Shown here piece by piece: positions 16,251 to 35,135 of a stretch of 64,000 nt of DNA. Numbering within the stretch: the stretch's first letter is position 1; each line of letters starts with the position of its first letter. The DNA is taken from positions 102,278 to 166,277 of the forward strand of contig JBMNPB010000001.1 in assembly GCA_050943375.1 (NCBI GenBank), given 5' to 3'. The notes beneath the pieces were generated by a model. That model made no database searches and was not told where the DNA came from. It saw nothing but the letters and a program-made list of their open reading frames with translations. The position numbers and the translations under genes were made by a program. This DNA is from a bacterium (GTDB lineage: Bacteria > Bacillota > SLNR01 > JBMNPB01).

Positions 16251-16808
16251 ATGAACAAAACAGTTGCCTTTATCACTAAAACCGCGATGCTGCTGGCATT
16301 AACTGTCCTGTTCCAGTCGCTGCGGGTTATTATCCCGATGCCGGCGTCGCTCAGCCAGTTTATCGCCGGTTCTCTGGTCAATATGTCGCTGATTATTGCC
16401 GGCGTCACCATTGGCATTCGGGGCGGCTTGGCCGTCGCCGTGCTCACTCCGGTTGTTGCTTTGCTGCATGGTTTTATCGGCAACCCGGTCCTGGTTCCTT
16501 TTGTTGCTCTCGGCAATGTGATTATCGTCGTCATTGTCCCCTTGCTTTACCACTCCAATCGACACTTGGCCGTCATCGCCGGAGCCGCCGCCAAATTTGT
16601 CACGCTTTATCTGCTGATCGTGAAATTTGCTTTTCCGGTCCTGCTGGCACCATCGTTGCCGGCGCCGCAGGCATCTAAGATGATTGGCGTGCTTTCTTAT
16701 CAATTTTCCTGGCTGCAGTTCGTCACGGCTTTGCTGGGTGGGGTGCTGGCTATGATAATTCTGCCTTGGCTGGTTAGGATAAACAATCAGCCGGGTGCAA
16801 AGTTCTGA
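16251..16808 (+). CDS. ECF-transporter S-component-like small membrane protein (substrate unknown)
   Basis: 185 aa with ~5-6 TM helices and an N-terminal MNKT…TKTAMLLALTVLF signature typical of ECF S components (ThiW/QueT/RibU-like). RBS aggagga. Confidence 0.7.
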   Translation: MNKTVAFITKTAMLLALTVLFQSLRVIIPMPASLSQFIAGSLVNMSLIIAGVTIGIRGGLAVAVLTPVVALLHGFIGNPVLVPFVALGNVIIVVIVPLLYHSNRHLAVIAGAAAKFVTLYLLIVKFAFPVLLAPSLPAPQASKMIGVLSYQFSWLQFVTALLGGVLAMIILPWLVRINNQPGAKF

Positions 16809-17343: not shown

Positions 17344-17835
17344 ATGGCAGAGGTATGCAAATACTGCGGTGACCGGCAAGTAGAGATGTATAAGGCTTTG
17401 GACAAGGTCATCGCGGAATACAAGGGCAAGCCCGGAGCGCTGATTCCGGTATTGCACCAGGCGCAGCAAATCTTCGGCTGCCTGCCTAAGGAAGTTCAGA
17501 TCCATGTGGCTGAAGGCTTGGACGTTCCGCTGGGCGACGTGTACGGAGTAATCACCTTTTACGCCTTCTTCTCTATGAAGCCGAAAGGGAAATACCAGAT
17601 CGGCGTCTGCATGGGTACGGCCTGTTATGTCAAAGGAGCGGTCAAAGTTCTGGAAGCATTGGAACAGCAGCTGGGAATAAGGCAGGACGATACCACGGAA
17701 GACGGCAAATTTTCGCTTGAGGTGCTGCGCTGCATCGGCGCCTGCGGTCTGGCGCCGGCCATCAAAATCAACGATGAAGTCTACGGCCGGATGACGGCGG
17801 GCAAAGTGGCCGAAGTATTGGCGAAATACGCCTGA
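17344..17835 (+). CDS. hydC: NuoE-like [2Fe-2S] subunit of NADH-dependent [FeFe]-hydrogenase (HydC/HndA-type)
   Basis: Thioredoxin-like [2Fe-2S] NuoE family motifs (…GTACYVKGA…RCIGACGLAP…). RBS gaaggagg. First gene of a hydrogenase operon. Confidence 0.9.
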   Translation: MAEVCKYCGDRQVEMYKALDKVIAEYKGKPGALIPVLHQAQQIFGCLPKEVQIHVAEGLDVPLGDVYGVITFYAFFSMKPKGKYQIGVCMGTACYVKGAVKVLEALEQQLGIRQDDTTEDGKFSLEVLRCIGACGLAPAIKINDEVYGRMTAGKVAEVLAKYA

Positions 17836-17850
17836 GGTCGGAGAAAGTCG

Positions 17851-18405
17851 ATGCGCGAACTGTCCCTACATATCATTGATATCCTGGAGAATTCCCGAAC
17901 GGCGGGGGCAACGCGAATTGACTTAGCCATCCGGCTCGATTCGGCGGCCGACCGGCTGACTATCCGGGTCACGGACAACGGCAGGGGCATGGACGCCGAG
18001 ATGGTCCGGCGGGCGACCGACCCGTTTGTGACTACCCGGACGGCGCGGAAGGTCGGTTTGGGGCTGCCGCTCTTAGCGGCGGCGGCAAGCCGCTGCCACG
18101 GCGATCTGTCGATTGTCTCGGAGCCGGGCAAGGGCACAAGCGTGACGGCGTTGTTTCAGCACAGTCACATCGACCGGGCGCCGCTGGGAAATATCATCGA
18201 TACCGTAACCGTATTCATCAGCGGTAATCCCGAAATCGCATTTATTCTTCGTTACAGCGTGGACGGCCGGGAAATGCGGTTGGACACGGCGGAATTGCAG
18301 GCAGAATTAAGCGATGTATCACTGAGCCACCCTTTGGTGGCCGGTTGGATAAAGCAGTACCTGCGGAAGAAATTGATTGAATTACGCGGAGGTGAAGATT
18401 GGTGA
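17851..18405 (+). CDS. GHKL (histidine-kinase-like) ATPase-domain protein embedded in the hydrogenase operon
   Basis: HATPase_c motifs (N-box …IDLAIR…, G-boxes DNGRGM and GLGLPL, GKGTSV). No HisKA or receiver domain. Similar proteins sit between hydC and hydD in Thermoanaerobacter-type hydrogenase clusters. Confidence 0.75.
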   Translation: MRELSLHIIDILENSRTAGATRIDLAIRLDSAADRLTIRVTDNGRGMDAEMVRRATDPFVTTRTARKVGLGLPLLAAAASRCHGDLSIVSEPGKGTSVTALFQHSHIDRAPLGNIIDTVTVFISGNPEIAFILRYSVDGREMRLDTAELQAELSDVSLSHPLVAGWIKQYLRKKLIELRGGEDW

Positions 18406-18764
18406 AGTCGTTGGCGGAATTGGCGGAATTACGAAAGAAGGCGCAAGAAATGACCCGGCTGCGGGAAGGAGACGCGCCGTTGAAAGTAGTGGTCGGTATG
18501 GGCACTTGCGGTATCGCGGCCGGAGCGAGAGATACGATGGCGGCCATTCTGGACGAATTGGCCCAGCATAATAGGGATGATGTAACGGTAACCCAGACGG
18601 GATGCGCTGGGCGGTGCGAGATGGAACCGCTGGTGGAAGTGTGCGAACCGGGCCAGCCCAAAGTCACTTACGGCAAGGTGACTCCAGAGAGAGCCCGCCG
18701 CATAGTCGCCGAGCATATCGGCAGCGGCCGGATAATCGAGGAGTGGGTCGTAGCTAAGCAGTAA
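18399..18764 (+). CDS. hydD: thioredoxin-like [2Fe-2S] ferredoxin subunit (HydD/HndB-type)
   Basis: 121 aa. Cys motifs CGIAAG…C…C typical of NuoE-like/HndB ferredoxins. TTG/GTG start after RBS ggaggtg. Confidence 0.8.
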   Translation: MVKSLAELAELRKKAQEMTRLREGDAPLKVVVGMGTCGIAAGARDTMAAILDELAQHNRDDVTVTQTGCAGRCEMEPLVEVCEPGQPKVTYGKVTPERARRIVAEHIGSGRIIEEWVVAKQ

Positions 18765-18904
18765 AGCATTTTCCCCTGCAAGGGAAAGTTCGGCTTTTCA
18801 CAAGCATCTAACAATCGCTCCGTCTGGCGGATAATACCGGCGGCGGACAAGGCACGAGAACACCGGGTAGTACAGAAAAGCCCGGGCTAAAGGAGGGCAA
18901 TATT

Positions 18905-20698
18905 ATGGACAGGGTTAGGGCGCACGTTTTGGTTTGCGCCGGGGCCGGCTGCATTTCCTCCAACTGCAAGGCGGTGGAGGAGGCCCTGGTCGATGAACTG
19001 GAGAAACAGGGGCTGGCGCAGGAAGTTAAAGTAGTTGAAACCGGCTGCATCGGCACCTGCGAGCTTGGCCCCATCATGGTAATTTACCCGGAAGGGATAT
19101 TTTACTGCAAGCTTAGGCCGGAAGACGCCAGGGAAATTGTCAGCGAGCACCTGCTGAAAGGGCGCCGGGTGGAGCGGCTGATGTACCGGCGGCCGGGCAG
19201 CGATATACCCATCGAAGCTGTCGACAATATCGACTTTTTCCGCAAGCAGGTACGGATTGCCCTGCGGAACACCGGTATCATCAATCCGGAAATCATCGAG
19301 GAATATATTGCCCGGGACGGTTACGCCGCTCTCGGCAAAGTGCTCACGGAGACGACTCCGGCGGAAGTCATTGATATAATGAAGAAGTCGGGCTTGCGGG
19401 GACGCGGCGGCGCCGGTTTCCCGACCGGCCTCAAATGGGAGTTTACGGCGAAAGCGAAAGGAACTCCCAAATACATTGTCTGCAACGCGGACGAAGGCGA
19501 TCCGGGTGCTTTTATGGACCGGAGCATTCTGGAAGGCGACCCGCACAGCATTATTGAAGCGATGGCCATCGCCGCTTATGCGGTGGGGGCAAACCAGGGC
19601 TATGTCTATGTCCGGGCTGAGTATCCCCTGGCAGTGGAAAGATTGAGCCAGGCGATCGGCAAGGCAAGAGAATACGGCCTGCTGGGCAAGAATATCCTTG
19701 GCACGGGATTTGATTTCGACCTGGAAATCCGGATCGGGGCCGGCGCTTTTGTATGCGGCGAAGAAACGGCACTGCTCGCCTCCATCGAAGGCAATCGCGG
19801 CGAACCGCGGCCGAAGCCGCCGTTCCCGGCGAACGAAGGAGTCTGGGGCAAGCCGACTTTGAACAACAATGTGGAGACTTACGCTAATGTTCCGGCGATA
19901 ATTCTCAAAGGCTGGGAATGGTATTCCGGCATCGGAACGGAGAAAAGTAAAGGCACGAAGGTTTTCGCCCTCGCCGGCAAGTGCAACACGGCGGGGCTTG
20001 TGGAAGTGCCGATGGGTACGACGCTACGGGAGATTATTTACGATATTGGCGGCGGTATCCAGGGTGGCAAGAAGTTCAAGGCGGCCCAGATCGGCGGACC
20101 TTCCGGCGCCTGCCTGACGGCCGAGCATTTAGACCTGCCGATGGACTATGAAAATCTGAAGGCGGTAGGTGCCATGGTCGGCTCGGGCGGCCTGATTGTT
20201 ATCGACGAGGACAACTGCATGGTTGACGTGGCGAGATTCTTCCTCGACTTCACCCAGGATGAATCCTGCGGGAAATGCGTGCCTTGCCGGATCGGGACGA
20301 AGCGGATGCTGGAAGTCCTGAACCGGATCTGTGAAGGAAAAGGTGAAGAAGGCGATATCGATAACCTGTATGAGTTGGCCAAAGTCATCAGCGGCTCCGC
20401 CCTTTGCGCGCTCGGTCAGACGGCACCAAACCCGGTGTTGAGTACGATTAAACACTTCCGGGATGAATATGAAGCGCACATTAAAGAGAGGCATTGTCCG
20501 GCGGGTATTTGTAAACCGCTCATCACATACACCATTAATCCCGCTGTCTGCCGTGCCTGCGGACTGTGCGCCAAGGCCTGCCCGGTAGAGGCCATCAGCG
20601 GGAAAGTGAAGGACAGCTTCGCCATTGGCCAGGCGAAATGCATTAAATGCGGCACTTGCCTGGAAAAATGCCCGTTCGGAGCAATTGAGAAAAAATAA
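18905..20698 (+). CDS. hydB: NuoF-like NADH-binding flavo-FeS subunit (HydB/HndC-type)
   Basis: N-terminal thioredoxin-like domain, then a 51-kDa NADH/FMN fold (GLRGRGGAGFPTGLKW) and SLBB domain. [4Fe-4S] NuoF motif (CGKCVPCR) and two C-terminal ferredoxin-type CxxCxxCxxxCP motifs. Confidence 0.9.
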   Translation: MDRVRAHVLVCAGAGCISSNCKAVEEALVDELEKQGLAQEVKVVETGCIGTCELGPIMVIYPEGIFYCKLRPEDAREIVSEHLLKGRRVERLMYRRPGSDIPIEAVDNIDFFRKQVRIALRNTGIINPEIIEEYIARDGYAALGKVLTETTPAEVIDIMKKSGLRGRGGAGFPTGLKWEFTAKAKGTPKYIVCNADEGDPGAFMDRSILEGDPHSIIEAMAIAAYAVGANQGYVYVRAEYPLAVERLSQAIGKAREYGLLGKNILGTGFDFDLEIRIGAGAFVCGEETALLASIEGNRGEPRPKPPFPANEGVWGKPTLNNNVETYANVPAIILKGWEWYSGIGTEKSKGTKVFALAGKCNTAGLVEVPMGTTLREIIYDIGGGIQGGKKFKAAQIGGPSGACLTAEHLDLPMDYENLKAVGAMVGSGGLIVIDEDNCMVDVARFFLDFTQDESCGKCVPCRIGTKRMLEVLNRICEGKGEEGDIDNLYELAKVISGSALCALGQTAPNPVLSTIKHFRDEYEAHIKERHCPAGICKPLITYTINPAVCRACGLCAKACPVEAISGKVKDSFAIGQAKCIKCGTCLEKCPFGAIEKK

Positions 20699-20752
20699 GG
20701 ATGCCGCCAAAGGGCAACGGAAGGCATTCAAAAAGAAGGAGTGTGTAAGGCA

Positions 20753-22480
20753 ATGGTATCGCTGAACATCGACGGGCGGAACGTCAGCGTTGAACCCGGG
20801 ACGACTGTGCTGCACGCGGCAGAAAAAGCCGGGATTCACATTCCGACCCTTTGTTATCTGAAAGACATCAACTGCATCGGCGCCTGCCGGGTTTGCGTAG
20901 TGGAAGTCGAAGGCGCTCGGGCGCTGCAGACCGCCTGCACTTATCCGGTGGCGGAAGGCATGGTCGTGAAGACCAACACCCCGGCAGTGCGGGCGGCGAG
21001 GAAAGCGGTAGTCGAATTAATCTTGTCCGACCACCCCCAAGACTGTCTGACTTGTTTCCGCAATCAGAACTGCGAGCTGCAGAAACTGGCCCAAGATCTC
21101 AATGTCCGGGAAGTCCGTTTCGCCGGCGAACAGACCCATCATCCCATCGATGCCTCCAGCCTGGCAATCGTCCGTGAACCGGACAAATGCATTCTTTGCC
21201 GGCGCTGCATCAGTGTCTGCCAGCAAGTGCAGGGCGTTCACGCCATCGGAATGGCGGAGCGGGGCTTCAAAAGCCTCGTCACCCCGGTTTTCGGGGAGGA
21301 CTTGGCTGACGTCGCCTGCGCCAATTGCGGCCAATGCGTTCTCGCCTGCCCGACCGGCGCTCTGCACGAGAAAGACGATACCGATAAAGTCTGGGCGGCC
21401 TTGACCGATCCGACGAAGCATGTCATCATTCAGACGGCTCCGGCCGTCCGGGTTGCAGTGGGCGAGGAGATGGGAATGGAGCCCGGGAGCCTCGTTACCG
21501 GCAAGATGGTGGCTGCGATCCGGCGGCTTGGCTCTGACAAAGTGTTTGACACCGACTTTACGGCCGATCTGACGATAATGGAAGAAGGGCACGAATTGCT
21601 GCACCGTTTGAACAACGGCGGCAAGCTGCCGATGATCACCTCCTGCAGCCCCGGCTGGATCAAGTATATTGAGCATTTTTACCCGAATCTTCTGGAGCAT
21701 CTCTCGACGTGCAAATCACCGCAGCAGATGTTCGGGGCACTGGCCAAGACGTATTACGCGGAGAAGGAAGGCATCGACCCGAAAGATATTGTCAGCGTTT
21801 CGGTAATGCCCTGCACGGCGAAGAAGTTCGAAGCCAAGCGGCCGGAAATGGATGACAGCGGCTATCAGGATGTGGATATCGCGATTACGACCCGGGAACT
21901 GGGCAGGATGTTCCGGGAAGCTGGGTTAGATTTTGCGAATCTGCCGGAGGAAGAATACGACGCTCCGCTGGGAATCAGCACCGGCGCCGGTGTTATCTTC
22001 GGCGCGACGGGCGGCGTCATGGAAGCGGCCCTGCGCACGGTGTACGAAGTCGTGACCGGCAAGACGCTGGAAAAAGTCGAGTTCACGGCGGTCCGGGGCC
22101 TGGAAGGCATCAAAGAAGCAACGGTTCAGGCTGGTGACATACCGGTGAAGGTGGCGGTAGCGCACGGCCTTGCCAATGCCCGGAAGATAATGGATCTGAT
22201 TCAAGACGGAAAAGCCGATTATCAATTCATCGAAATCATGTGCTGCCCGGGCGGGTGTATTGGTGGCGGCGGCCAGCCAATCCCGACCAATACCAAAATA
22301 CGCGGCAAGCGGGCGATGGCCATCTACACCGCGGATGAACTCTCAGTTATCCGCAAATCCCATGAAAACCCGGCGGTGCAGACATTGTACAAAGAATTCC
22401 TGGAGAAGCCCCTCGGGGAAAAATCCCATCATCTGCTGCACACTCATTACACGAAGCGGCCAAAATACCCGAAGGTTTAG
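20753..22480 (+). CDS. hydA: [FeFe]-hydrogenase catalytic subunit with NuoG-like N-terminal FeS domains and variant H-cluster motifs
   Basis: N-terminal 2Fe-2S and 4Fe-4S domains. H-cluster motifs: L1 ITSCSPGW (21632-21658), L2 MPCTAKKFE and L3 EIMCCPGGCIGGGGQP. ATG 20753 with RBS aaggag. Confidence 0.9.
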   Translation: MVSLNIDGRNVSVEPGTTVLHAAEKAGIHIPTLCYLKDINCIGACRVCVVEVEGARALQTACTYPVAEGMVVKTNTPAVRAARKAVVELILSDHPQDCLTCFRNQNCELQKLAQDLNVREVRFAGEQTHHPIDASSLAIVREPDKCILCRRCISVCQQVQGVHAIGMAERGFKSLVTPVFGEDLADVACANCGQCVLACPTGALHEKDDTDKVWAALTDPTKHVIIQTAPAVRVAVGEEMGMEPGSLVTGKMVAAIRRLGSDKVFDTDFTADLTIMEEGHELLHRLNNGGKLPMITSCSPGWIKYIEHFYPNLLEHLSTCKSPQQMFGALAKTYYAEKEGIDPKDIVSVSVMPCTAKKFEAKRPEMDDSGYQDVDIAITTRELGRMFREAGLDFANLPEEEYDAPLGISTGAGVIFGATGGVMEAALRTVYEVVTGKTLEKVEFTAVRGLEGIKEATVQAGDIPVKVAVAHGLANARKIMDLIQDGKADYQFIEIMCCPGGCIGGGGQPIPTNTKIRGKRAMAIYTADELSVIRKSHENPAVQTLYKEFLEKPLGEKSHHLLHTHYTKRPKYPKV

Positions 22481-22600
22481 GCAGGTGGAAAGGGGAAGCG
22501 GGGAGGAGAGAAAACATTGCCTTACCTGCTCTCTGGATGGGCGACAAAGAAAAGGCCGAGGCGGCCCAATCTCCCCGGCAACACTTAAAAGCAAAGAACG

Positions 22601-22644
22601 GGACTGTTCCCTTCCGGCAAGGAGGAGGACAGTCCTTTTATTTG
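22601..22644 (+). terminator. rho-independent terminator after hydA
   Basis: Long bulged stem ggactgttccctt/aaggaggaggacagtcc followed by ttttatttg. Confidence 0.6.
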
Positions 22645-22785
22645 ATGGATATGCTTAGCCAGGGCGGAAGTAATGAGATGATATTAACTGTCTCCAAAAA
22701 ACCGCCGCCCGCAATCTGACTGCTGCCGGGAGGTAAGCGGCGCAAGCGGACCGTCATCCCCGGGCAGCCCGTAGACATAGGCAAG

Positions 22786-23125
22786 CGCATCTCTGCGCCA
22801 GGCATAGCGGGAGGCGTTCAGGTACGAGCGGCTCGTTCTGGGCCTCAATTTCCTGCGGATAAGGCGTACCCTGAGATGCTCGCGATTCTCGCGCCGTTGG
22901 CCGACACGCTTATTCTGACTAAACCCGACAGCCCGCGGGCGGCAGAGCCGGAAGAACTGCAGGTGATCGCTGCCCGGTTCCAGAGCGATATCCGCCTGCA
23001 GGCAACAGTCGGGCAAGCGGTCGACGCGGCTTTGCGCATCGCCCGTCCGGCCGACCTTGTGTGCATTGCCGGGTCTTTGTATACAGTCGGCGCAAGTCGC
23101 GATAGATGGGGAAAATCGGCTTAAA
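22786..23125 (+). pseudogene. displaced partial copy of the folC 3' end (codons ~323-431), paired with 15383-15718
   Basis: The 82-aa ORF 22876-23124 is near-identical to the FolC C-terminus (MLAILAPLADTLILTKPD…SLYTVGASRDRW). It has no 5' part of the gene and no RBS. Confidence 0.8.
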
Positions 23126-23388
23126 ACAAAGATTACCCGATAACAACTGCTTTGACTTTTCGGGCTTTTTTAGCTAAGATGAAACTTAAAGAGAGCAGTC
23201 GGAGCAGCCAAATTACACCAAAGCGGAAATTAACTGTCTGTTGCAGGGATTCCGCAAAATTTGTCTAACACATAAATAGTTCAAAACATCACAAAATATT
23301 TTGTCGTCGACGGGCGGCAATATTATGATTGCAAAATTAGTATATATTTAATATCATTGCCGGGCGGGCGATTGGGGAGGTTAGAAAT

Positions 23389-23742
23389 TTGCCTCTTGTT
23401 CTTGAAGATGTTCGTCGTATTCTGGACGCGGAAATCATCAGCGGGGAAGAGAGGCTGGAGCGCCCAGTCGCTACGGTTTGCGCCTCCGATATGATGAGCG
23501 ATGTCCTAACGGTTGCCAAGGAACACGCAATCCTGCTTACGAGTCTCGCCAATCAGTATGTCATCCGCACGGCCGAAATAACCGATCTGGATGCGATTGT
23601 GTTTGTCTGCGGCAAGCGGCCGGATGCTGCCGCTACCGCTTTGGCCCGCCGAGTCGGCATGCCCCTTATGGCGACCGGCAAAACAATGTTTGAAAGCTGC
23701 GGCCTGTTGTATGGACATGGATTTAGGAGTGTTGCGCAGTAA
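23389..23742 (+). CDS. DRTGG-domain protein
   Basis: 117 aa. DRTGG-type fold signature (…DMMSDVLT…AILLTSLAN…DLDAIVFVCG…). TTG start after RBS ggggagg. Confidence 0.7.
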   Translation: MPLVLEDVRRILDAEIISGEERLERPVATVCASDMMSDVLTVAKEHAILLTSLANQYVIRTAEITDLDAIVFVCGKRPDAAATALARRVGMPLMATGKTMFESCGLLYGHGFRSVAQ

Positions 23743-23777
23743 AGCGGGGCGGTCTGGGAGCAGTGGGAGGAAAAAGA

Positions 23778-24245
23778 ATGGCTGGCGAGGAAAGTAGCGG
23801 GAGAAAGTCCGCCCCTGTGCTGACAATGTCGTTCCCGGTCAACTACCGGAACTTCGGAGCGGTCGGGGAAGCCGCCAGCCGAATTAAGACCGCGCTTCAA
23901 AAAATCGGCGTACCGCCTCCGATTATCCGACGGGTGGCAGTTGCCGCTTATGAAACGGCAATGAATATCGCAATTCACGCCGAGCGGGGCGACCTTATCT
24001 TAATCATCAACCCCGACTGCATCGAGATTTTAGCGGAAGACACCGGAGCCGGAATTGCTGATTTGGAGATGGCCATGCAGGAGGGGTATTCGACTGCCCC
24101 CGATTATATCCGGAAAATGGGTTTCGGTGCCGGAATGGGACTGCCCAACAGCAAGCGCTGTGCCGATATATTTGAACTCCGCTCTCAACTCGGCAAAGGT
24201 ACGACAGTCTACATCCGGATTAATGTTCCGGAACAAGCCGAATAA
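23778..24245 (+). CDS. GHKL ATPase (anti-sigma-factor/RsbW-SpoIIAB-like HATPase_c) protein
   Basis: HATPase_c N-, G1- and G2-boxes (…AYETAMNIAIHA…, DTGAGI, GFGAGMGL). ATG 23778 with RBS gggagg. Confidence 0.7.
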   Translation: MAGEESSGRKSAPVLTMSFPVNYRNFGAVGEAASRIKTALQKIGVPPPIIRRVAVAAYETAMNIAIHAERGDLILIINPDCIEILAEDTGAGIADLEMAMQEGYSTAPDYIRKMGFGAGMGLPNSKRCADIFELRSQLGKGTTVYIRINVPEQAE

Positions 24246-24313
24246 CGATGAAAAGAAACAGCCGGCTCGGTAACGCCCCGGGCCGGGGAGAGAAGGCAAG
24301 CGAGGTGAGAAGA

Positions 24314-24652
24314 ATGAAACTGGGAGACCTGGCCAGGGAGCTAGGTCTGCGGGTCTGCAGCGGACAGGAGTATCTGGAGCGAGAAGTGACCGGGGGTTAT
24401 TGCTCGGACATGCTCAGTGACGTCATGGCTCATGCGCAGGAAGGCAATATTTGGCTGACTATCCAGACTCATCAGAACATCGTCGCGGTGGCTTCTCTCC
24501 TCGGGCTGTGCGCCATTGTTATTACCGGCGGTGGTGAACCGGATGCGGACACGCTGGGAAAAGCCCAAAAAGAGGAAGTCGCTATTCTTACCACTGCGTG
24601 GTTTTCATTTGAAACAGGCGGCCGGATTTATCAACTGCTGGCCAAAGGATAG
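24314..24652 (+). CDS. DRTGG-domain protein (second copy)
   Basis: Paralogous to 23389-23742 (…GYCSDMLSDVMA…IWLTIQTHQN…AIVITGG…). ATG 24314 with RBS gaggtgag. Confidence 0.7.
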   Translation: MKLGDLARELGLRVCSGQEYLEREVTGGYCSDMLSDVMAHAQEGNIWLTIQTHQNIVAVASLLGLCAIVITGGGEPDADTLGKAQKEEVAILTTAWFSFETGGRIYQLLAKG

Positions 24653-25079
24653 CCGCGGCAAAATTACGGCCGGGCATGCTGAAAGCTTTGTGGCGCCGGA
24701 GCCGAAATGCCGGCGATACGATATCGCCCAGATTGGGGCGGAAAGAGTCAGCATAATTACTGACGACCGCAAAAGAGATCTGCTCGTCAGAGTTTTCGAC
24801 GTCCGCTGACCAGAAGTTTCAGACCGGGAGCGAACGCAGATTGGAACGGCTGAATCGCTACGGTAAAATCAGCCCCGCTGTACGGACCGAGCAGAATGAA
24901 AAGGTGGTGATAGCCAGTCATATGCGCGCCAGTATCCGAAAGCCGGAGTTTTTCACCCGGCACGAAAGCTTCTCCGGGATATTTGCGGAACTGGTTCTAT
25001 CAGATTTGAGTAATACCGCCGGGTCAGGCAGCGCGAGTTGCCGGTTTTCCTGAATAACCGCCTCTGTTTGGGTCTGCAA

Positions 25080-25114
25080 TTATGGCTGAAATATGAGAGC
25101 GGCTATGGTATAAT
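25080..25114 (+). promoter_or_regulatory. extended -10 promoter (TGgTATAAT) upstream of the fdh module
   Basis: tggtataat at 25106-25114. Weak -35. Confidence 0.4.
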
Positions 25115-25158
25115 GCCAGCGTGTGTGCAATTTTTCACAAATTTTGCTCAAATCCATA

Positions 25159-25677
25159 ATGAAGCTGAGGGAGGTGTTTTCATTGGCAAAACGCAAGACG
25201 GTTGTACCGTTTCAGGGCACAGCAGAGCAGGAAGCGAAGCTTCTGGAGATTATCGAGAAGCATAAAGGGGTGCAAGGCGCATTGATGCCGGTCCTGCAGC
25301 AGGCCCAGGATCTTTACGGCTATCTTCCCATCGAGGTCCAGAGAATCATTGCCGATAAGATGGGCTTGCCGCTGTCGGAGGTCTATGGCGTAGCTACGTT
25401 CTACGCACAGTTCACTCTCAATCCGAAAGGCAAGCACCAGATTGCAGTCTGTCTGGGGACTGCTTGCTATGTAAAGGGTTCGGGCGCGGTGATTGAACGT
25501 ATCGGCCAGAAGCTCGGCATCGAACCGGGCGGGATTACCCCGGACGGCTTGTTCTCGCTGGAGGCGACACGTTGCATCGGCGCTTGCGGACTGGCGCCGG
25601 CGATGACCATCGACGGCAAGGTTTACGGCCGCCTGACTCCGGCAGATGTGGATGAAATCATTGATTCATACAAGTAG
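25159..25677 (+). CDS. NuoE-like [2Fe-2S] subunit (paralog of hydC) of the formate dehydrogenase module
   Basis: Same NuoE signature (GTACYVKGS…RCIGACGLAP). Start ambiguous: ATG 25159, or TTG 25183 after gagggagg. Confidence 0.85.
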   Translation: MKLREVFSLAKRKTVVPFQGTAEQEAKLLEIIEKHKGVQGALMPVLQQAQDLYGYLPIEVQRIIADKMGLPLSEVYGVATFYAQFTLNPKGKHQIAVCLGTACYVKGSGAVIERIGQKLGIEPGGITPDGLFSLEATRCIGACGLAPAMTIDGKVYGRLTPADVDEIIDSYK

Positions 25678-25738
25678 GACGAGTCTTGGCTTTAACGACT
25701 CGCAGCAATTGTGAAAAATCATAAGGAGGTGTATTCCT

Positions 25739-27598
25739 ATGAAATCCCTGGCGGAACTTGCCGAATACCGGGAAAAAGTGAAGGCTGAATGCAATTTGCG
25801 TCAAGACAAATCGGACGACACGCGGGTGTTGGTCGGTTATGCGACATGCGGAATTGCAGCCGGCGCTACCCCGGTGCTGGACGCCTTTATCGAAGAAGTT
25901 GGCAAACGTCGACTCCCGAAAGTGATGGTGACCCAGACCGGCTGTATCGGTATCTGTAAGCTCGAACCAGTGGTGGAAATCCTCGAGCCCGGCAAAGAAA
26001 AAGTGACCTATGTGGAATTGACTCCGGATAAGGTGGAAAAAATCGTCACAGAGCATCTGCAAAACGGCCGGGTGGTCGATGAATACACGATCGGCGCCCA
26101 TGAGGAAGGCATCCAGAGTCTGAACGACAGCAAGTTTTACAAGAAGCAGCGACGCGTGGCGCTGCGGAACTCCGGAATCATCAATCCAGAGTCAATCGAC
26201 GAATACATCGCCCGTGACGGTTATGAAGCGCTCGGGCGCGTGCTGACCAGCATGCAACCGGAAGACGTCATCGCTACCATCAAGAATTCCGGCCTGCGTG
26301 GCCGTGGCGGTGCCGGCTTCCCGACCGGCCTGAAGTGGCAGTTCGCTGCGGCCAGCCCCGGACCGGTGAAATATGTCTGCTGCAACGCCGACGAAGGCGA
26401 CCCCGGCGCGTTCATGGACAGATCGGTGCTGGAAGGCGATCCCCACGCTTTGCTGGAGGCGATGACTATCGCCGGTTACGCCATAGGTGCGCATCAAGGA
26501 TATATCTATGTCCGGGCTGAGTATCCGACCGCAATCAAGCGCCTGCAGATCGCTATCGACCAAGCGCATAAATACGGTTTCCTGGGCAAAAACATCTTTA
26601 ACACCGGTTTCGATTTTGATCTGGAACTGAGGCTTGGCTCGGGTGCGTTCGTGTGCGGCGAGGAGACGGCGCTGATGATCTCCATCGAAGGTAAGCGCGG
26701 TGAGCCCAGACCCCGGCCGCCTTTCCCGGCAGTCAAAGGTCTGTTTGACAAGCCCACTATTCTGAACAACGTTGAGACTTACGCTAATATCCCGCGCATT
26801 ATTCTGAACGGCGCCGACTGGTTCTCCGCCGTCGGAACCGAAAAATCGAAAGGCACCAAAGTGTTCTGCCTGGTCGGCAAAATCAACAACACCGGCTTGG
26901 TGGAAATCCCGATGGGTACAACTTTGCGGGAGGTAATCGAGGAAATCGGCGGCGGCATCCAGGGCGGCAAGAAATTTAAGGCAGCGCAGACCGGCGGTCC
27001 CTCGGGCGGCTGCATCCCCGCATCCTTAATCGATACACCCATCGATTACGATAACCTCGTCGCCATCGGCGCGATGATGGGCTCGGGCGGTCTCATCGTT
27101 ATGGATGAGGACACATGCATGGTGGACATCGCTAAGTTCTTCCTGGAATTCACGGCCGAGGAGTCCTGCGGTAAGTGCACACCCTGCCGCATCGGAACGA
27201 AACGTCTGCTGGAAATGCTCGAGAAGATCACCCGTGGCGAAGGCACACTGGAACTGCTTGACGACATGGAAGAGCTGTGTAACGGCATCAAAAACAACAG
27301 CCTTTGCGCCCTCGGTCAGACAGCCCCGAACCCGGTTCTGTCAACGCTGCGCTATTTCCGGGATGAATATGTTGCCCATGTGGTCGACAAAAAATGCCCG
27401 GCTGGTGTTTGTAGGGATCTGCTGTCCTATGAGATTGACGCCGACAAGTGCATCGGCTGCACGGCTTGTGCCAGAGCCTGCCCGGCGGGTGCCATCTCCG
27501 GCAAGGTTAAGGAAAAGCATGTTATCGATAAGGCCAAGTGCATCAAGTGCGGCGCTTGCCTCGAAGCTTGTAAGTTCGGCGCCGTCGCCAAGAAATAA
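25739..27598 (+). CDS. NuoF-like NAD(H)-binding flavo-FeS subunit with fused N-terminal thioredoxin-like ferredoxin domain (paralog of hydB)
   Basis: GLRGRGGAGFPTGLKW, CGKCTPCR and C-terminal 2x[4Fe-4S] motifs. Collinear with 18905-20698. Confidence 0.9.
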   Translation: MKSLAELAEYREKVKAECNLRQDKSDDTRVLVGYATCGIAAGATPVLDAFIEEVGKRRLPKVMVTQTGCIGICKLEPVVEILEPGKEKVTYVELTPDKVEKIVTEHLQNGRVVDEYTIGAHEEGIQSLNDSKFYKKQRRVALRNSGIINPESIDEYIARDGYEALGRVLTSMQPEDVIATIKNSGLRGRGGAGFPTGLKWQFAAASPGPVKYVCCNADEGDPGAFMDRSVLEGDPHALLEAMTIAGYAIGAHQGYIYVRAEYPTAIKRLQIAIDQAHKYGFLGKNIFNTGFDFDLELRLGSGAFVCGEETALMISIEGKRGEPRPRPPFPAVKGLFDKPTILNNVETYANIPRIILNGADWFSAVGTEKSKGTKVFCLVGKINNTGLVEIPMGTTLREVIEEIGGGIQGGKKFKAAQTGGPSGGCIPASLIDTPIDYDNLVAIGAMMGSGGLIVMDEDTCMVDIAKFFLEFTAEESCGKCTPCRIGTKRLLEMLEKITRGEGTLELLDDMEELCNGIKNNSLCALGQTAPNPVLSTLRYFRDEYVAHVVDKKCPAGVCRDLLSYEIDADKCIGCTACARACPAGAISGKVKEKHVIDKAKCIKCGACLEACKFGAVAKK

Positions 27599-27785
27599 GC
27601 GATATTCTTGTCTGCATCCCGTTTAAGGCGGGATCCGGCTGCGGCCGTCCTGGCGCCGCCGGCAATGAAGCCAGCGGTTTTTGTCTCGTCAGAGAAAGAA
27701 GGCGGACGGCTGACCGGGGTGCAGGTGTCGCTTCATCATCACACAACAAGGATTCACTTCAGTGAATTCACGAGGAGGGATAACC

Positions 27786-30461
27786 TTGATAAACGTCACC
27801 ATCGACGGCATTCCGGTACAGGTGGAAGAAGGCGCAACCATTCTCGATGCCGCCGAAAAGGCCGGAATTCATATTCCCACCCTCTGTCATTTAAAGGGGG
27901 TCACCGGCGAAGGCTCCTGCCGGATGTGTTTGGTCGAGGTCGAAGGTGTGCGCGGTATGCCAGCCGCCTGCTCCTTCCCGGTGGCTGAGGGCAATGTGGT
28001 TCACACCGACACCCCCAAAGTCATCGAAAGCCGCAAGTTCGTCCTGAACCTGCTGCTCTCGAACCACAGAACGGATTGCTTCTCCTGTGCCAAAAACGGC
28101 GATTGCAAGCTGCAGGAGTACTGCTATGAATATGGAATCGAGATGTCGAAATACGAAGGCGAAAAAACCGAAGCTCCCATTGACGACAGCAACGAGTTCT
28201 TCACTTACGATCCTTCCCAATGCATCATGTGCCGTCGTTGCGTAAACACTTGCCACAAGCTGCACGGCGTCGGCGCCATCTCCGTTGTCGACCGGGGTTT
28301 TTCGGCGGCAATCCGCGCCCCCTTCGACGAACTGCTGAAAAGCAGCGACTGCGTCTCCTGCGGCAATTGCGTCTCCAACTGCCCGGTCGGCGCCCTGGCT
28401 CCCAAATCGAAGCATCGTTTCCGTACTTGGGAAGTCAAACACGTTCCGACCACCTGCAGTTACTGCGGCGTCGGCTGCCAATTGGATCTGCTGGTCAAGG
28501 GTAATAAAGTGGTCGGCGTACAACCGCTTGACGGTCCCGCCAACCACGGACTGCTTTGCGTCAAAGGCAAATTCGGGTATGAGTTTATCGACCATCCCGA
28601 CCGCCTGAAGAAGCCGCTGATTCGCAAGGACGGCGAATTGGTGGAAACGAGCTGGGATGAGGCGCTTGACTATGTGGCCGACAAACTGAAGGCGATCAAG
28701 GCCGAAAGTGGCCCCGACGCCATCGCCGGCTTGACCAGCGCCCGCTGCACCAACGAAGAGAACTATGCTTTTATGAAGATGATGCGCGCAGCCGTCGGCA
28801 CTAACAATGTCGATCACTGCGCCCGCCTCTGACACTCCCCAACGGTGGCCGGTCTGGCCGCCACACTGGGGTCCGGTGCTATGACTAACTCTATCGCGGA
28901 AGTAGCTGACGCTGATCTGGTCTTTGTGACCGGTTCCAATACCACTGAAACGCATCCGGTTATCGGTTCGCTGATCCGGCAGGCCAAACGTAAGGGCGGC
29001 AAGCTCATTGTGGCTGAACCGAGGAAGATTCCGCTCTGCCGCGAGGCTGATTTGTTCCTGCAGATCAAACCGGGTACCAACGTCGCGCTGCTCAACGGGA
29101 TGATGAACGTCATCATTGCCGAAGGACTGCAGGACCAGGCATACATTGATGCCCGCACCGAAGGCTACGAGGAGCTGAAAGCGGTTGTCGCCGACTACAC
29201 TCCCGATAAAGTGGCCGAAATCTGCGGTATCGAAGCGGAAGACCTGAAGACCGCGGCCCGGATGTATGCCGAGGCCGGTGTAGCCGGTATCTTTTATGCC
29301 ATGGGTGTGACCCAGCATACAACCGGTACGGAAGGGGTCATGAGTACTGCCAACCTGGCGCTGCTGTGCGGCAATATCGGCAAATACGCCGGCGGTGTTA
29401 ACCCGCTGCGCGGACAGAACAACGTCCAGGGCGCCTGCGATATGGGCGGGCTGCCCGGTGATTTCTCCGGCTATCAGAAAGTAGCGAACCCGGCCGTTAT
29501 CGAGAAATTCGAGAAGGCCTGGGGTGTGAAGCTGTCCAATAAGCCCGGCTACACCGTCATGGAAATGATGGACGCTATCGACAAAGGCGAGGTTCGCGCT
29601 ATGTATATCATGGGTGAGAATCCCATGATTTCCGACCCCGATATCCAGCACGTCGAACACGCGCTTAAAAAATGCGAGCTCCTCGTGGTTCAGGATATCT
29701 TCCTGACCGAAACGGCTGCTCTCGCCGACGTTGTTCTCCCGGCCGCTGCTTTCGCTGAGAAGGATGGTACCTTTACTAACACCGAGCGGCGCGTGCAGCT
29801 GGTCAACAAGGCGGTGGAAGCACCCGGCGAGGCGAGAACCGACTTGGATATCATTAACGATATGACAGCGCGCCTCGGATACAAAAACAACTTCGCGACT
29901 CCGGCCGAAGTGCTGGCGGAAATCGCCGCGGTGACGCCTTCCTACGGAGGGATGTCGGTGGAGCGGCTCAAGGACGGAGGGCTGCAGTGGCCCTGCCCCG
30001 ACAAGGACCATCCCGGCACTCCTATCCTGCATGCTAAGAAGTTCTCCCGCGGCGAGCGCGCGATCTTCAAGCCGGCGAAGTACCGTTCCGGAGCGGAACA
30101 GCCCGATGCTGAATATCCTTATATCTTCACGACGGGCCGGATCCTTTATCAGTATCACACCCGCACTATGTCGGGCAAGGTCGACGGTCTTAACGCCATC
30201 GCGGGCAACTCCTATGTGGAGATTAACCCGACCGATGCCGCGAAATACGGCATTAAGCAGGGCGACGCCGTCACGGTCAGCTCCCGGCGGGGCAGCGTGA
30301 CCGTCCCGGCTCAGGTCACGGAGGCGGTCGCCGAAGGGATTATCTTCATGCCCTTCCATTTCGCCGACGGTCCGGCCAATCTGCTGACTAACGCTGTATA
30401 TGATCCTATCGCCAAGATCCCGGAATACAAGGTCTGCGCAGTCAAGATCCGAAAAGGATAA
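27786..30461 (+). CDS. fdhA: selenocysteine-containing formate dehydrogenase alpha subunit (NuoG-like N-terminus plus molybdopterin domain); in-frame UGA at 28830-28832
   Basis: The ORF-track ORFs 27762-28832 and 28845-30461 are in the same frame. The junction reads …VDHCARL-U-HSPTVAGLAA…, the canonical Sec context of Fdh-type enzymes. A SECIS-like hairpin follows. TTG 27786 after RBS gaggaggg. Confidence 0.85.
28837..28871 (+). promoter_or_regulatory. bacterial SECIS-like hairpin 5 nt downstream of the in-frame UGA
   Basis: Lower stem cccc/gggg, internal loop, upper stem gtggc(c)gg/ccgccac with a bulged C and apical loop UCUGG. Confidence 0.55.
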
Positions 30462-30522: not shown

Positions 30523-31137
30523 ATGAAAATGTTCGGAACAGCGGCCATTCTGGCCGGCGGCAAATCATCGCGAATGGGTTTTGACAAGCAGTTGCTCACG
30601 CTTGACGGGAAACGGTTTCATGTTCAAATCATCGAACAGCTACGGCAATTGTTTGGCGATGTTCTGCTGGTGACGAACAAGCCGGAGTTTTACCGGGAAT
30701 TGCCAGTACGGGTCTGCTCCGACGTTTTTCCCGGAAGGGGTCCGCTCGGCGGCATTCACGCGGCGCTGTTCAATGCCCAAAGCCGTTATGTCTATGTGCT
30801 GGCCTGTGATATGCCGTGTGTTTGCCCCGGTTATATCCATTACCAGATGAAACTGCTTCGGCGCAACCCCTCCGGCGCCTGTGTCACCCGGAAGGAGGAC
30901 TGGCTGGAGCCTTTCAATGCCTTTTACAGTACCGACACTCTCCCGATTTTGTCCCGCCATCTGCAGGAAGGGAAAAGCTCGCTTTATTTCTTTCTGAAGG
31001 AAATCAACGCTGCTATTCTGGCGGAAGAGACAGCCCGCCGCTTTGATCCGGAGATGAATATGTTCCTCAATCTGAACACTCCGGCGGAGTATGAGGCCTT
31101 TATCAAAAGGAGAGGGCGATATGAAGCTTGCGGTTGA
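30523..31137 (+). CDS. mobA: molybdenum cofactor guanylyltransferase
   Basis: N-terminal nucleotide-binding motif AILAGGKSSRMG. ~205 aa. ATG 30523 with RBS gggaggga. Confidence 0.8.
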   Translation: MKMFGTAAILAGGKSSRMGFDKQLLTLDGKRFHVQIIEQLRQLFGDVLLVTNKPEFYRELPVRVCSDVFPGRGPLGGIHAALFNAQSRYVYVLACDMPCVCPGYIHYQMKLLRRNPSGACVTRKEDWLEPFNAFYSTDTLPILSRHLQEGKSSLYFFLKEINAAILAEETARRFDPEMNMFLNLNTPAEYEAFIKRRGRYEACG

Positions 31138-31900
31138 TGCGCCGATTTTGCGCTATGAAGATGGGCAAACCAGGTTGCTCGACGATCCCGTCGTTGTCGA
31201 ATACCGACTGGCTGTCTGGCTGAACGGAGCGCCTTGGGTCAATCTCCTGTGCTCACCGCAGGATCTGGATGTACTGGTGCTGGGTTATCTGTACGGCGAA
31301 GGCATTATCAAGACGCCGGACGATATCCTGTCGATTGCCCTCGCGCCGGAAGACGGCATCGCCCGGGTAACGGTCCGGGGTGTGCCGGAGATGCCGGCCC
31401 AGGCCGGTCCGATCACGGCCCCCCGCGGCGCCGGGCGGCAGCACGCAATGGGCGGCGCCGGCCCGGGCCGCCCGGCTGAGCCTCTTTCGGGCAGTCTAAA
31501 CTTTGCCGGTGGTGCGCTGCTTAGGAATCTGCGGCAGTTCTACGCCGACTCGGGCTTGCACCGATTGACGGCAGGGGTGCACCGTGCCGCTCTCTGTGAC
31601 GACAACGGCATCCTTCTGACCGCCATTGATATCAGCCGGCATAATGCTTTCGACAAGGTGCTCGGCATGGCCTTGCGGCAAAACATCCCGCTGGAATGCC
31701 ACTATCTGATCACCAGCGGCCGTGTTCCCAGCGACATGGTCAACAAAGCGATTACCGCCCGTTTGCCTATGCTGGTATCCCGGGCGGCGCCTACAGATTG
31801 GGCAATCAGACTCGCCCGGGAAGCGAACATGACGCTGCTGGGATTCTCCCGTGAGAATCGCTTCAACATTTATACCGGAGCACACCGGGTTAATATGTAG
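31121..31900 (+). CDS. fdhD: FdhD-family formate dehydrogenase accessory sulfurtransferase homolog (cysteine loop not evident)
   Basis: FdhD-like N- and C-terminal blocks (…LTAGVHRAAL…DISRHNAFDKVLG…VSRAAPTDWAIRLAREANMTLLGFSR…). ATG 31121 with RBS aggaga. Overlaps the mobA end. Confidence 0.8.
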   Translation: MKLAVDAPILRYEDGQTRLLDDPVVVEYRLAVWLNGAPWVNLLCSPQDLDVLVLGYLYGEGIIKTPDDILSIALAPEDGIARVTVRGVPEMPAQAGPITAPRGAGRQHAMGGAGPGRPAEPLSGSLNFAGGALLRNLRQFYADSGLHRLTAGVHRAALCDDNGILLTAIDISRHNAFDKVLGMALRQNIPLECHYLITSGRVPSDMVNKAITARLPMLVSRAAPTDWAIRLAREANMTLLGFSRENRFNIYTGAHRVNM

Positions 31901-33908: not shown

Positions 33909-35135
33909 ATGAGCAAACGGGTTTTCTTGGAAGGAGCCGACCTGCGGCAATTGCGGGGGACGACCGCCGAAAAAACGATTGTCGCTGTCCCCGCTCCGGC
34001 GAGCGTCGTGCTGTTTGTCGGCGATCTGGAAATGCTTGTCAAAGCCGGAGACACGGTGCTGGCCGGTCAGATGCTGGCGCACAGTAAAGCGCTTTTATCT
34101 GTCCCGGTCCACGCCAGTATCGCCGGCAAGATCAAGCAGGTGGAAGACTTGCCCAATCCGAACGGCGGTCTGGCCCGGGCGGTAGTGATTGAGAATGACG
34201 GCTCGGGAGCGGTGCACGAGACGGTGCAGAAGCCGGGCAATTGGGAGTCCATGCCGGCCGATGCTTTGCGGGACGCAATTTTCAACGCCGGTATTTATCT
34301 TCCTCCCTTCGGCGGCGACCGGCCAGGCCAGGTATTGGTAAACTGCGCGGTAAGTGAGCCTTCGATTACCGCCGATTATCGCCTGATGCTGGAGCGGGCG
34401 GCCGATATTGTCAGCGGCCTTGCGGCCGCAATTAAGGCGGTCGGCGCCAAACAAGGGATAATTGTCGTGGACAAGAGAGAACTCGAAGCGGTGCAGGCGA
34501 TGCGGAAAGCTTTGCCGGCGGACGGCACCATCGGTCTTGTCGCCCCGGACAATCGTTATCCGCCGCTGGCGGAAAAGCTGCTGTTCAGGGATGTGACCGG
34601 GGGTAAGATGCCCAGCGTCATCATGACTGCGGGCGAAGCAGTGGCGATCAGTGAATTTCTGCAGACTGGCAAACCGTATATCGAAAAGACGGTGACCGTT
34701 ACCGGATCCGGCGTGCGGGAACCTGGCAATTATCAGATGCCGTTGGGGATGCGCTGCCGCGACGCGCTTGCGGCCGCGGCGAAGATCGAAGGAGAAATCG
34801 GCCAGATTATTCTGGGCGGTCCTCTGGCGGGAACACTGGCGGCTTCGGCGGATGTACCGCTCACGAAAAAAATGGACGGTATTCTGGTCTTGGCCGCCGC
34901 CGATGTGCGGCGGGATAAGCCGGGGAAATGCGTCCGCTGCGGGGCTTGTATTCAGGTCTGTCCCATCGGGCTGATGCCGCTGTATCTGGGGGATGTGGCC
35001 GAGGCCGGCCGGGCCGGTGAAGCTGCCGCTTACCACGTTGACGAATGTGTTGAGTGCGGCGCCTGTGCTTACGAATGTCCGGCGAAGCGGCCGCTGCTGC
35101 AGTATATCAGGCTGGCCAAAGGCGAGGGGAAATAA
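33909..35135 (+). CDS. rnfC: Rnf complex subunit C (divergent nucleotide-binding loop)
   Basis: RnfC_N, SLBB-like region (…LVNCAVSEPSITADYRLMLE…) and two C-terminal [4Fe-4S] motifs (CVRCGACIQVCP, CVECGACAYECP). First gene of rnfCDGEAB. Confidence 0.8.
   Translation: MSKRVFLEGADLRQLRGTTAEKTIVAVPAPASVVLFVGDLEMLVKAGDTVLAGQMLAHSKALLSVPVHASIAGKIKQVEDLPNPNGGLARAVVIENDGSGAVHETVQKPGNWESMPADALRDAIFNAGIYLPPFGGDRPGQVLVNCAVSEPSITADYRLMLERAADIVSGLAAAIKAVGAKQGIIVVDKRELEAVQAMRKALPADGTIGLVAPDNRYPPLAEKLLFRDVTGGKMPSVIMTAGEAVAISEFLQTGKPYIEKTVTVTGSGVREPGNYQMPLGMRCRDALAAAAKIEGEIGQIILGGPLAGTLAASADVPLTKKMDGILVLAAADVRRDKPGKCVRCGACIQVCPIGLMPLYLGDVAEAGRAGEAAAYHVDECVECGACAYECPAKRPLLQYIRLAKGEGK

Follow-up and report, generated by a model that had tools for sequence, protein, structure and literature searches.

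Two HydABC-type enzymes, a predicted [FeFe]-hydrogenase and a predicted selenocysteine formate dehydrogenase, as neighbours at a rearranged locus of a Bacillota genome

The stretch of DNA analysed here, referred to as the window (64,000 nt of contig JBMNPB010000001.1; coordinates are those of the window unless another contig is named), contains at 17.3-31.9 kb two sets of NuoE- and NuoF-like flavoprotein genes, each with a different catalytic partner. Module 1 (hydC, a GHKL-type ATPase gene, hydD, hydB and hydA) is that of a predicted [FeFe]-hydrogenase, and module 2 (nuoE2, nuoF2, fdhA, mobA and fdhD) that of a predicted formate dehydrogenase (FDH). All of these genes are on the plus strand and all are intact open reading frames (ORFs). 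The modules are not contiguous, but are spaced by 2.7 kb holding a terminator, a pseudo-fragment of folC and three genes for regulators. An earlier note on this DNA had pictured them as tandem paralogous modules, a multimeric hydrogenase next to a selenocysteine (Sec) FDH, with their metabolism possibly coupled. As argued below, the modules probably encode two distinct soluble enzymes, both members of the Bfu (HydABC-type) family, that became neighbours through a lineage-specific rearrangement. Coordinates of the features are collected in Table 1.

Module 1 was assigned from its catalytic subunit and from its gene order. HydA scores 950 bits against the NCBIfam model NF040763 (NADH-dependent [FeFe] hydrogenase, 'group A6'; cut-off 765) and carries the H-cluster motifs L1 TSCSPGW, L2 MPCTAKKFE and L3 EIMCCPGGCIGGGGQP. 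The textbook form of L1 is TSCCPxW; the form seen here (21638-21658, residues 296-302) also occurs in the solved HydA1 chain 7q4v_A, and is thus compatible with an assembled HydABC enzyme. The same chain is the best solved relative of HydA, at 733 bits. Together with the domains found in the other subunits, these results bear out the multimeric [FeFe]-hydrogenase on NuoE/NuoF-like subunits, and module 1 is predicted to be a standard member of the HydABC family, or 'Type 1 FeFe-Bfu' hydrogenase. In its subunits, the order of its genes and its cofactor motifs it corresponds to HydABC (solved chains 7q4v, of Acetobacterium woodii, and 7p5h, of Thermotoga maritima) and to the hydC-hisK-hydD-hydB-hydA operon type of Caldanaerobacter and Thermoanaerobacter. 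Nothing essential differs in it from HydABC; it is only detached from the DRTGG-HATPase-HydS-DRTGG-PHP genes that usually lie upstream. The GHKL ATPase gene recurs in many hyd operons of other genomes, and hisK-like and hydD genes inside a hyd operon, as in module 1, have been described (PMC9304861). The enzyme would couple H2 with NAD(H) and ferredoxin (Fd) in a bifurcating or confurcating manner, the predicted reaction being 2 H2 + NAD+ + 2 Fd(ox) <-> NADH + 2 Fd(red) + 3 H+.

In module 2, fdhA directly follows nuoE2-nuoF2, and its product bears NuoG-like Fe-S and pterin domains on one polypeptide. Residues 1-222 of FdhA are 45% identical to the N-terminal Fe-S domain of HydA, and the best solved relative, the FdsA chain 6tg9_A, aligns over the full length with 802 bits. 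The gene is interrupted by one in-frame TGA (28830-28832) in the motif HCARL-U-HSPTV, at a position where Cys is found in 120/120 of the best full-length homologs (HCARL-C-HA; proteins P0125-P0244); Sec homologs are probably under-represented among these, since automatic gene prediction cuts them in two at this codon. A hairpin with a GGUCU loop directly follows the UGA; the Rfam selenocysteine insertion sequence (SECIS) model matches it over the full model length but below the gathering score, and the fold z-score of the hairpin is only -1.6. The in-frame TGA at the Cys position and the pterin domains agree with the Sec-type FDH on NuoE/NuoF-like subunits that the earlier note proposed. For the beginning of nuoE2, whose ORF opens at 25123, a TTG at 25183 preceded by the ribosome-binding site GAGGGAGG is likelier than the previously assumed start at 25159. 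In the 187-nt gap between nuoF2 and fdhA no riboswitch or leader was found, nor any similarity to other loci. On the minus strand a 902-aa ORF (27891-30599) runs antisense to fdhA, most likely as the shadow ORF of a GC-rich gene and not as a gene itself.

FdhA would use Sec and a Mo- or W-containing bis-pyranopterin guanine dinucleotide (bisPGD) cofactor, matured by MobA and FdhD, and module 2 would couple formate/CO2 with NAD(H) and ferredoxin, as module 1 does for H2. Enzymes of the Bfu family have a conserved core of BfuB and BfuC, which contains flavin mononucleotide (FMN), whereas BfuA, through which the third substrate enters, varies between them (Schut et al. 2022, PMC9304861). In one class, the Type 1 Fdh-Bfu enzymes, the pterin domain lies within BfuA; this class, with an example in Carboxydothermus hydrogenoformans, was a predicted one and uncharacterised as of 2022 (PMC9304861). 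By its gene content and domains the whole of module 2 appears to be a 'Type 1 Fdh-Bfu', having likewise a BfuC, a BfuB and a BfuA with a C-terminal pterin formate dehydrogenase domain, and is unusual for the class only in its hydrogenase-linked core, its Sec and the three-Cys-plus-Glu N-terminal domain of NuoF2. The Type 3 Fdh-Bfu of Gottschalkia (Clostridium) acidurici, HylABC-FdhF2, is likewise linked to formate, NAD and ferredoxin, contains Se and has a NuoE/NuoF-like core (PMC9304861), but its pterin subunit FdhF2 is separate from the HydA-like HylA, whereas in module 2 the NuoG-like and pterin domains are fused.

Comparison of the flavoprotein subunits with known cofactor sites showed that the BfuB domain set (FMN/NADH 51-kDa, SLBB, NuoF [4Fe-4S] and ferredoxin-type) is complete in both HydB (hereafter also NuoF1) and NuoF2, and that the FMN motif and the B1 cluster are present in both. 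The B2 site, H-x5-C-x4-C, is HIKERHCPAGIC in NuoF1 and HVVDKKCPAGVC in NuoF2, and the upstream DExxCMV reads DEDNCMV and DEDTCMV; the B2 His is conserved in nearly all BfuB (PMC9304861). Each protein also has two C-terminal CxxCxxCxxxC motifs for B3 and B4, the clusters required for bifurcation (PMC11829005), and each has a B5 site in its N-terminal domain. In NuoF1 this domain is thioredoxin-like and of the four-Cys type (Cx4C...CxxxC), and exists besides the separate HydD. In NuoF2, residues 1-132 (25739-26134) form a single HydD-like thioredoxin-like domain, 45% identical to HydD, in which C37, C69 and C73 are followed by xxEP (TCGIAAGA...GCIGICKLEP); three-Cys-plus-Glu sites of this kind, as in NfnB and StnB, bind Zn (PMC11829005). 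The fusion of a thioredoxin-like domain to NuoF that had been singled out in module 2 is therefore present but not exclusive to it, as HydB of module 1 has an N-terminal domain of its own. Among the retrieved loci a separate hydD accompanies the Cx4C-type HydB, and HydD-like N-termini are nearly confined (18/20) to loci in which no separate hydD was detected. The two NuoE-like proteins are alike in their PF01257 score (179 bits) and in their [2Fe-2S] motif, Cx4C...Cx3C.

Judged by these motifs, both NuoF-like proteins retain all the cofactor sites by which bifurcating enzymes differ from their simply NADH-dependent relatives, and features of bifurcating enzymes (B1-B4, B5 and the [2Fe-2S] site of NuoE), the type that the earlier note had suggested, are present in both modules. 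It was nevertheless considered whether one or both enzymes depend simply on NADH and do not bifurcate, as is the case for Syntrophomonas wolfei Hyd1ABC and Rhodobacter FdsABG. Among solved structures FdhA does match best the FdsA of the non-bifurcating Rhodobacter capsulatus enzyme, and no Type 1 Fdh-Bfu with demonstrated bifurcation was found in the literature. However, the non-bifurcating homologs (the Rhodobacter FDH, complex I and the S. wolfei hydrogenase) are without B2-B5 (PMC9304861), whereas both NuoF-like proteins have the B2 His and Cys and both C-terminal [4Fe-4S] motifs. In the NAD-dependent FdsABG of R. capsulatus and Cupriavidus necator the FdsA subunit aligns with FdhA over its full length, including the N-terminal NuoG-like domain, but FdsB, unlike NuoF2, has neither the C-terminal two-cluster ferredoxin domain nor the B2 site (PMC9304861). 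NuoF2 scores 876 bits against the bifurcating HydB chain 7q4v_B, its best solved relative, versus 389-443 bits against FdsB chains. A non-bifurcating nature of either enzyme is therefore regarded as unlikely.

The earlier note had observed that the NuoE and NuoF pairs are collinear and homologous, and this is well supported, as NuoE1 and NuoE2 are 54% identical (E 1e-56) and NuoF1 and NuoF2 61% identical over 595 aa, far beyond chance. As an alternative it had suggested the duplication of a single flavoprotein set and its adaptation to two catalytic partners, with phylogeny of the pairs as the check. Such a local tandem duplication would account for the collinearity, and a duplicated 3' end of folC flanking module 1 does show that duplicative events took place at the locus. 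The phylogeny, however, points elsewhere. In a neighbour-joining tree (114 sequences, 564 columns, 200 bootstraps) NuoF2 is sister to a hydA-linked HydB from another genome (locus L083) in 200/200 bootstraps, while NuoF1 and NuoF2 are sisters in 0/200. NuoF1 falls outside a cluster of ~100 sequences to which NuoF2 belongs, and ~100 sequences from other genomes are closer to NuoF2 than NuoF1 is. Comparison with a relative of this lineage, contig L174 (described below), gave a similar result for the smaller subunit, its hydC product being 82% identical to NuoE1 and 56% to NuoE2; in L174, moreover, the stretch from folC to the regulators holds no second copy, and the N-terminal domain types of NuoF1 and NuoF2 differ. 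Local duplication was rejected on phylogeny and orthology, and is given hardly any credence.

The affinities of the module 2 core were examined further through its relatives in other genomes. The best non-self matches of NuoF2 among 5.8 billion proteins are 73-84% identical, the closest being a HydB encoded beside HydA. Where the downstream gene of such relatives could be read, it was hydA in 3/4 cases (P0057, 84%; P0008, 74%; P0018, 73%), an Nfn-like pair in 1/4 (P0031, 79%) and an FDH gene in 0/4; contigs L176 and L177 end before the gene downstream of NuoF and are uninformative on its partner. Among the genome loci listed with NuoF2 (at least 80, at 63-73% identity), hydA lies downstream in 80/80, and many of them have the full string DRTGG-HATPase-(HydS)-DRTGG-nuoE-GHKL-hydD-nuoF-hydA. 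In order of similarity to NuoF2, all 35 of the 35 FDH-linked NuoF homologs rank below 76 that are not FDH-linked (almost all of these hydA-linked), the best FDH-linked homolog reaching 73% over the C-terminal 300 residues only. The best relatives of NuoE2, at 66-71% identity, lie beside NuoF2-like genes; L176 and L177 are at 71%, and only L178 (66%) is confirmed as hydA-linked. In a metagenome scan with FdhA, the collinear order nuoE-nuoF-fdhA-mobA-fdhD was met with frequently. The nearest relatives of FdhA (73-74% identity over the pterin part) adjoin divergently transcribed nuoE-nuoF genes whose NuoF is only 60-62% identical to NuoF2.

From these relations the core of module 2 does not appear to be a local copy of the module 1 core, but to belong to a hydrogenase-linked branch, so that it would have been acquired or re-partnered. 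This affinity agrees with the statement that Fdh-Bfu enzymes had several origins and occur dispersed across the BfuB tree (PMC9304861). On two further contigs (L087, 4307-8612, and L088) a BfuB 79% identical to NuoF2 is preceded by DRTGG-HATPase-HydS-DRTGG-PHP-GHKL-hydD and followed not by a BfuA gene but by an NfnAB-like pair (DHODB_Fe-S_bind and GltD-like), an arrangement that may be another partner swap on the same type of core.

How the two modules came to lie side by side was revealed by a single relative and by a scar. The neighbourhood of the two modules is a REARRANGEMENT. In the protein collection the window FolC has one close relative, at 73% identity and encoded on contig L174, which was recovered through this similarity; the next matches, at 50% identity or less, come from Moorellaceae, Thermosediminibacter, Ca. 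Contubernalis and similar taxa, and by these matches the host organism appears to be a deep Bacillota lineage. The gene order of L174 is valS-folC-DRTGG-HATPase-HydS-DRTGG-PHP-hydC-GHKL-hydD, followed by the contig end. Its ValS is 86% identical to that of the window, and over the part of module 1 that the comparison covers (hydC, GHKL and the start of hydD) the identities are 82% for hydC, 68% for GHKL (both 184 aa) and 88% for the hydD fragment. The first DRTGG protein of L174 is 66% identical to the product of the window gene at 23389, the HATPase 72% identical to its window counterpart (listed at 23778) and the second DRTGG protein 81% identical to its own (listed at 24314). The DNA is collinear as well, L174 10988-12423 (folC end, spacer, DRTGG and HATPase) with window 22811-24242, and L174 14977-16203 with window 17323-18547. 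On the basis of this orthology and collinearity, module 1 appears to be the ancestral hydrogenase operon of the lineage.

Compared with L174, the order in the window is altered, with the hyd genes upstream of the DRTGG-HATPase-DRTGG regulators and the folC fragment at the junction. The fragment is collinear with the folC-DRTGG junction of L174 and repeats the 3' end of the complete folC in two tiers: a part of 258 nt (22857-23114) shares 97% identity with 15445-15702, and in the adjoining 60 nt on its upstream side, where a frameshift and a stop codon occur, the identity is ~75%. The tiers suggest that the two folC copies underwent gene conversion or that the fragment is of composite origin. 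Where L174 has hydC...hydA, behind the former hydrogenase regulators, the window has module 2. The HydS gene, which in L174 separates the HATPase gene from the second DRTGG gene, is missing; no remnants of HydS or PHP were found at 22.4-25.3 kb, nor any match to L174 HydS or PHP in the whole window. The path may have been a tandem duplication starting inside folC, with subsequent complementary deletions and insertion of module 2, or else a translocation, and the rearrangement is dated only to the time after this lineage and that of L174 had separated. Among ~165 other sampled loci an FDH module and a HydABC module are adjacent in one, the termite-gut metagenome contig L138. In this contig (8084-18800) nuoE-nuoF-fdhA-fdhD is convergent with hydA-nuoF-nuoE, and the FDH-linked NuoF has an FdsB-like core with 40% identity to NuoF1.

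A window from a contig of a metagenome-assembled genome that contains a 258-nt repeat at 97% identity could in principle be a chimera joined at the folC repeat. This was rejected, since independent contigs match across the junctions at 100%: contig L001, from a different sequencing run, is identical to window 15668-21636, and the Joint Genome Institute contig L175 to 21917-23428, spanning hydA, the folC fragment and the start of the first DRTGG gene. The repeat copies furthermore differ by single-nucleotide changes, and the second is extended at its 5' end by degraded sequence, which an assembler would not produce. The chance of an assembly artefact is considered negligible.

The intervening DNA also bears on whether the modules work as one. 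The terminator after hydA has a z-score of -3.9, and 0/200 shuffled sequences fold as well; the promoter-like site before nuoE2 has 10/12 consensus matches and is the best site in 15-34 kb. Because of these two signals the modules appear to be separate transcription units. The three genes between them are of kinds that usually accompany the sensory hydrogenase HydS in hyd operons; in the window, where they stand without HydS and PHP, they may act on module 2 or, in trans, on module 1, or may have lost their function. In the 470 nt between the second DRTGG gene and nuoE2 (24653-25122) neither a gene nor any resemblance to HydS or PHP could be recognised. The NCBI protein numbering leaves room for one extra call in this interval.

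The adjacency might otherwise reflect one hydrogenase-FDH supercomplex acting as a formate-hydrogen lyase, in the manner of the Clostridium autoethanogenum HytA-E/FdhA complex or of hydrogen-dependent CO2 reductase (HDCR). The genes are adjacent, such complexes are known (PMC9304861), and HDCR chains are among the solved relatives of both FdhA and HydA. The C. autoethanogenum enzyme (an FdhFeFe-Bfu) likewise joins hydrogenase and FDH chemistry to a Bfu core, but does so as one complex with a single shared core and extra Fe-S subunits (PMC9304861), whereas the window has two complete cores, each module having its own BfuA, BfuB and BfuC. No HytD/E-like or HycB-like connector genes were found at the locus; the strong terminator, the 2.7 kb with three regulators and a pseudogene fragment, and the promoter-like site lie between the modules; and the adjacency itself appears to be a recent accident of rearrangement. 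A supercomplex is accordingly held to be very improbable. Two independent soluble complexes are most likely, because of the terminator, the promoter-like site, the full BfuA/B/C set of each module and the lack of connector subunits. The idea that side-by-side placement marks a co-evolved unit was likewise not sustained, given the folC scar of a lineage-specific rearrangement and the separate transcription units.

The earlier note had also placed an rnf operon downstream, and its genes were confirmed by their domains as rnfCDGEAB with apbE. Rnf would link ferredoxin and NADH to the membrane potential, and shared pools of NAD(H) and ferredoxin would be the sole connection between Rnf and the two enzymes. 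Together they would let H2 and formate be consumed or produced by way of these two electron pools. With the rnf operon following the modules, coupling through shared pools and Rnf is plausible. Neither the direction nor co-regulation of the two modules can be read from the DNA.

Several points weigh against the interpretation of two separate enzymes brought together by rearrangement, with a hydrogenase-linked core in module 2. The enzyme functions of both modules are deduced from sequence; no characterised Type 1 Fdh-Bfu is given in PMC9304861 (2022), and a later report or solved structure was not found. The SECIS score of 54.8 bits is below the Rfam gathering score of 63, and no sel genes lie within the window. 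With regard to the origin of the core, the hydrogenase-linked loci were picked by NuoF2 similarity and the FDH-linked loci by FdhA similarity, an FDH-linked sister of NuoF2 outside the sampled loci is possible, and the trees are neighbour-joining and not maximum likelihood. Codon usage and third-position GC content (GC3) of module 2 are the same as in the rest of the window, and a horizontal-transfer test of the module by GC, GC3 and codon distance gave no signal; its composition thus offers no hint of recent transfer. Contig L174 breaks off within hydD, and orthology of hydB and hydA is thereby extrapolated. Finally, gene conversion may account for the high identity (97%) of the folC repeat, in which case that identity would not date the rearrangement.

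Table 1. Features of the hydrogenase-FDH locus, in window coordinates
Feature	Coordinates	Strand	Evidence and remarks
folC, complete; left anchor of the rearranged region	14417..15712	+	73% identity to L174 FolC; follows valS as in L174
ECF-transporter S-component gene	16251..16808	+	PF12822, 38 bits; lineage-specific insert between folC and hydC
hydC / BfuC (NuoE-like, [2Fe-2S])	17344..17835	+	PF01257 (2Fe-2S_thioredx) 179 bits; Cx4C...Cx3C
GHKL/histidine-kinase-like ATPase gene, 184 aa	17851..18405	+	HATPase_c 61 bits; inside hyd operon
hydD, small thioredoxin-like protein, three-Cys type	18399..18764	+	weak PF01257 match
hydB / BfuB (NuoF-like, FMN)	18905..20698	+	Complex1_51K, SLBB, NADH_4Fe-4S, 2x Fer4
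hydA / BfuA, [FeFe]-hydrogenase catalytic subunit	20753..22480	+	Fe_hyd_lg_C 346 bits; ORF opens GTG 20741
Intrinsic terminator after hydA	22600..22643	+	15-bp stem then UUUUAUUU, -26.4 kcal/mol
folC 3' pseudo-fragment, 319 nt; rearrangement scar	22797..23114	+	repeat of folC 3' end (15384-15702)
DRTGG-domain gene 1, former hydrogenase-operon regulator	23389..23742	+	PF07085
Anti-sigma-type HATPase gene	23763..24245	+	HATPase_c, HATPase_c_2
DRTGG-domain gene 2	24248..24652	+	PF07085
Promoter-like site before module 2	25086..25114	+	CTGAAA-17-TATAAT, extended TG; consensus match only
nuoE2 / BfuC	25183..25677	+	PF01257 179 bits; Cx4C...Cx3C
nuoF2 / BfuB, 619 aa	25739..27598	+	Complex1_51K, SLBB, NADH_4Fe-4S, 2x Fer4; all B1-B4 motifs
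fdhA / BfuA, N-terminal Fe-S and Mo/W-bisPGD domains	27786..30461	+	891 aa read-through; Molybdopterin, Molydop_binding
SECIS element	28827..28885	+	Rfam SECIS_3 RF01989, 54.8 bits (gathering score 63), E 3e-12, full model length
mobA	30523..31137	+	ORF opens 30400; NCBIfam MobA models E 1e-33 to 1e-40, below curated cut-offs
fdhD, formate dehydrogenase sulfurtransferase	31091..31900	+	TIGR00129 171 bits, cut-off 141
rnfCDGEAB and apbE	33909..40316	+	RnfC_N, NQR2_RnfD_RnfE, FMN_bind, Rnf-Nqr (twice), FeS+Fer4, ApbE

The surroundings of the modules consist of a conserved block, valS-folC ... maf-radC-mreBC-minCD-rodA ... rplU, with the hyd, FDH, rnf and apbE genes inserted between folC and maf. 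A T-box leader (10690-10907) lies upstream of valS and an L21 leader (55886-55957) upstream of rplU, and the sole tRNA of the window is tRNA-Ala(GGC) at 63077-63152. The gene for the substrate-binding (S) component of an energy-coupling factor (ECF) transporter that precedes hydC is absent between folC and the regulators in L174. It is surrounded by long untranslated flanks in the interval 15713-17343, which has an AT-rich stretch at ~15930-16100; none of these is present at the corresponding position of L174, and no Rfam match was found in the interval at the gathering threshold. Between fdhD and rnfC a 327-aa polytopic membrane protein without a Pfam match is encoded (32518-33501), for which a role in transport, perhaps of formate, is only a guess; its gene is followed by a 16-bp GC-rich hairpin (33652-33687) with no clear T-tract.

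In summary, both enzymes are of kinds already described in the Bfu/HydABC family, and nothing in the gene content is out of the ordinary for a strict anaerobe that has Rnf. The contribution of the locus is a scar-bearing example of module shuffling, in which a hydrogenase operon was displaced from its regulators and an FDH with a hydrogenase-type core stands in its place. It may be, though this is offered tentatively, that module 2 is a young natural 'catalytic-subunit swap', with a BfuBC core of the hydrogenase clade serving a Sec-containing FdhA in the ancestral hyd slot, behind regulators that are without HydS and PHP. If so, cores of the hydrogenase type would accept an FDH partner with little change, and a hydrogenase regulatory cassette would be re-usable, or left stranded, before an FDH. 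The pair of cores that are 84% identical and have different catalytic partners could guide the engineering of CO2-reducing bifurcating enzymes, and module 2 could become the first Type 1 Fdh-Bfu to be tested biochemically.

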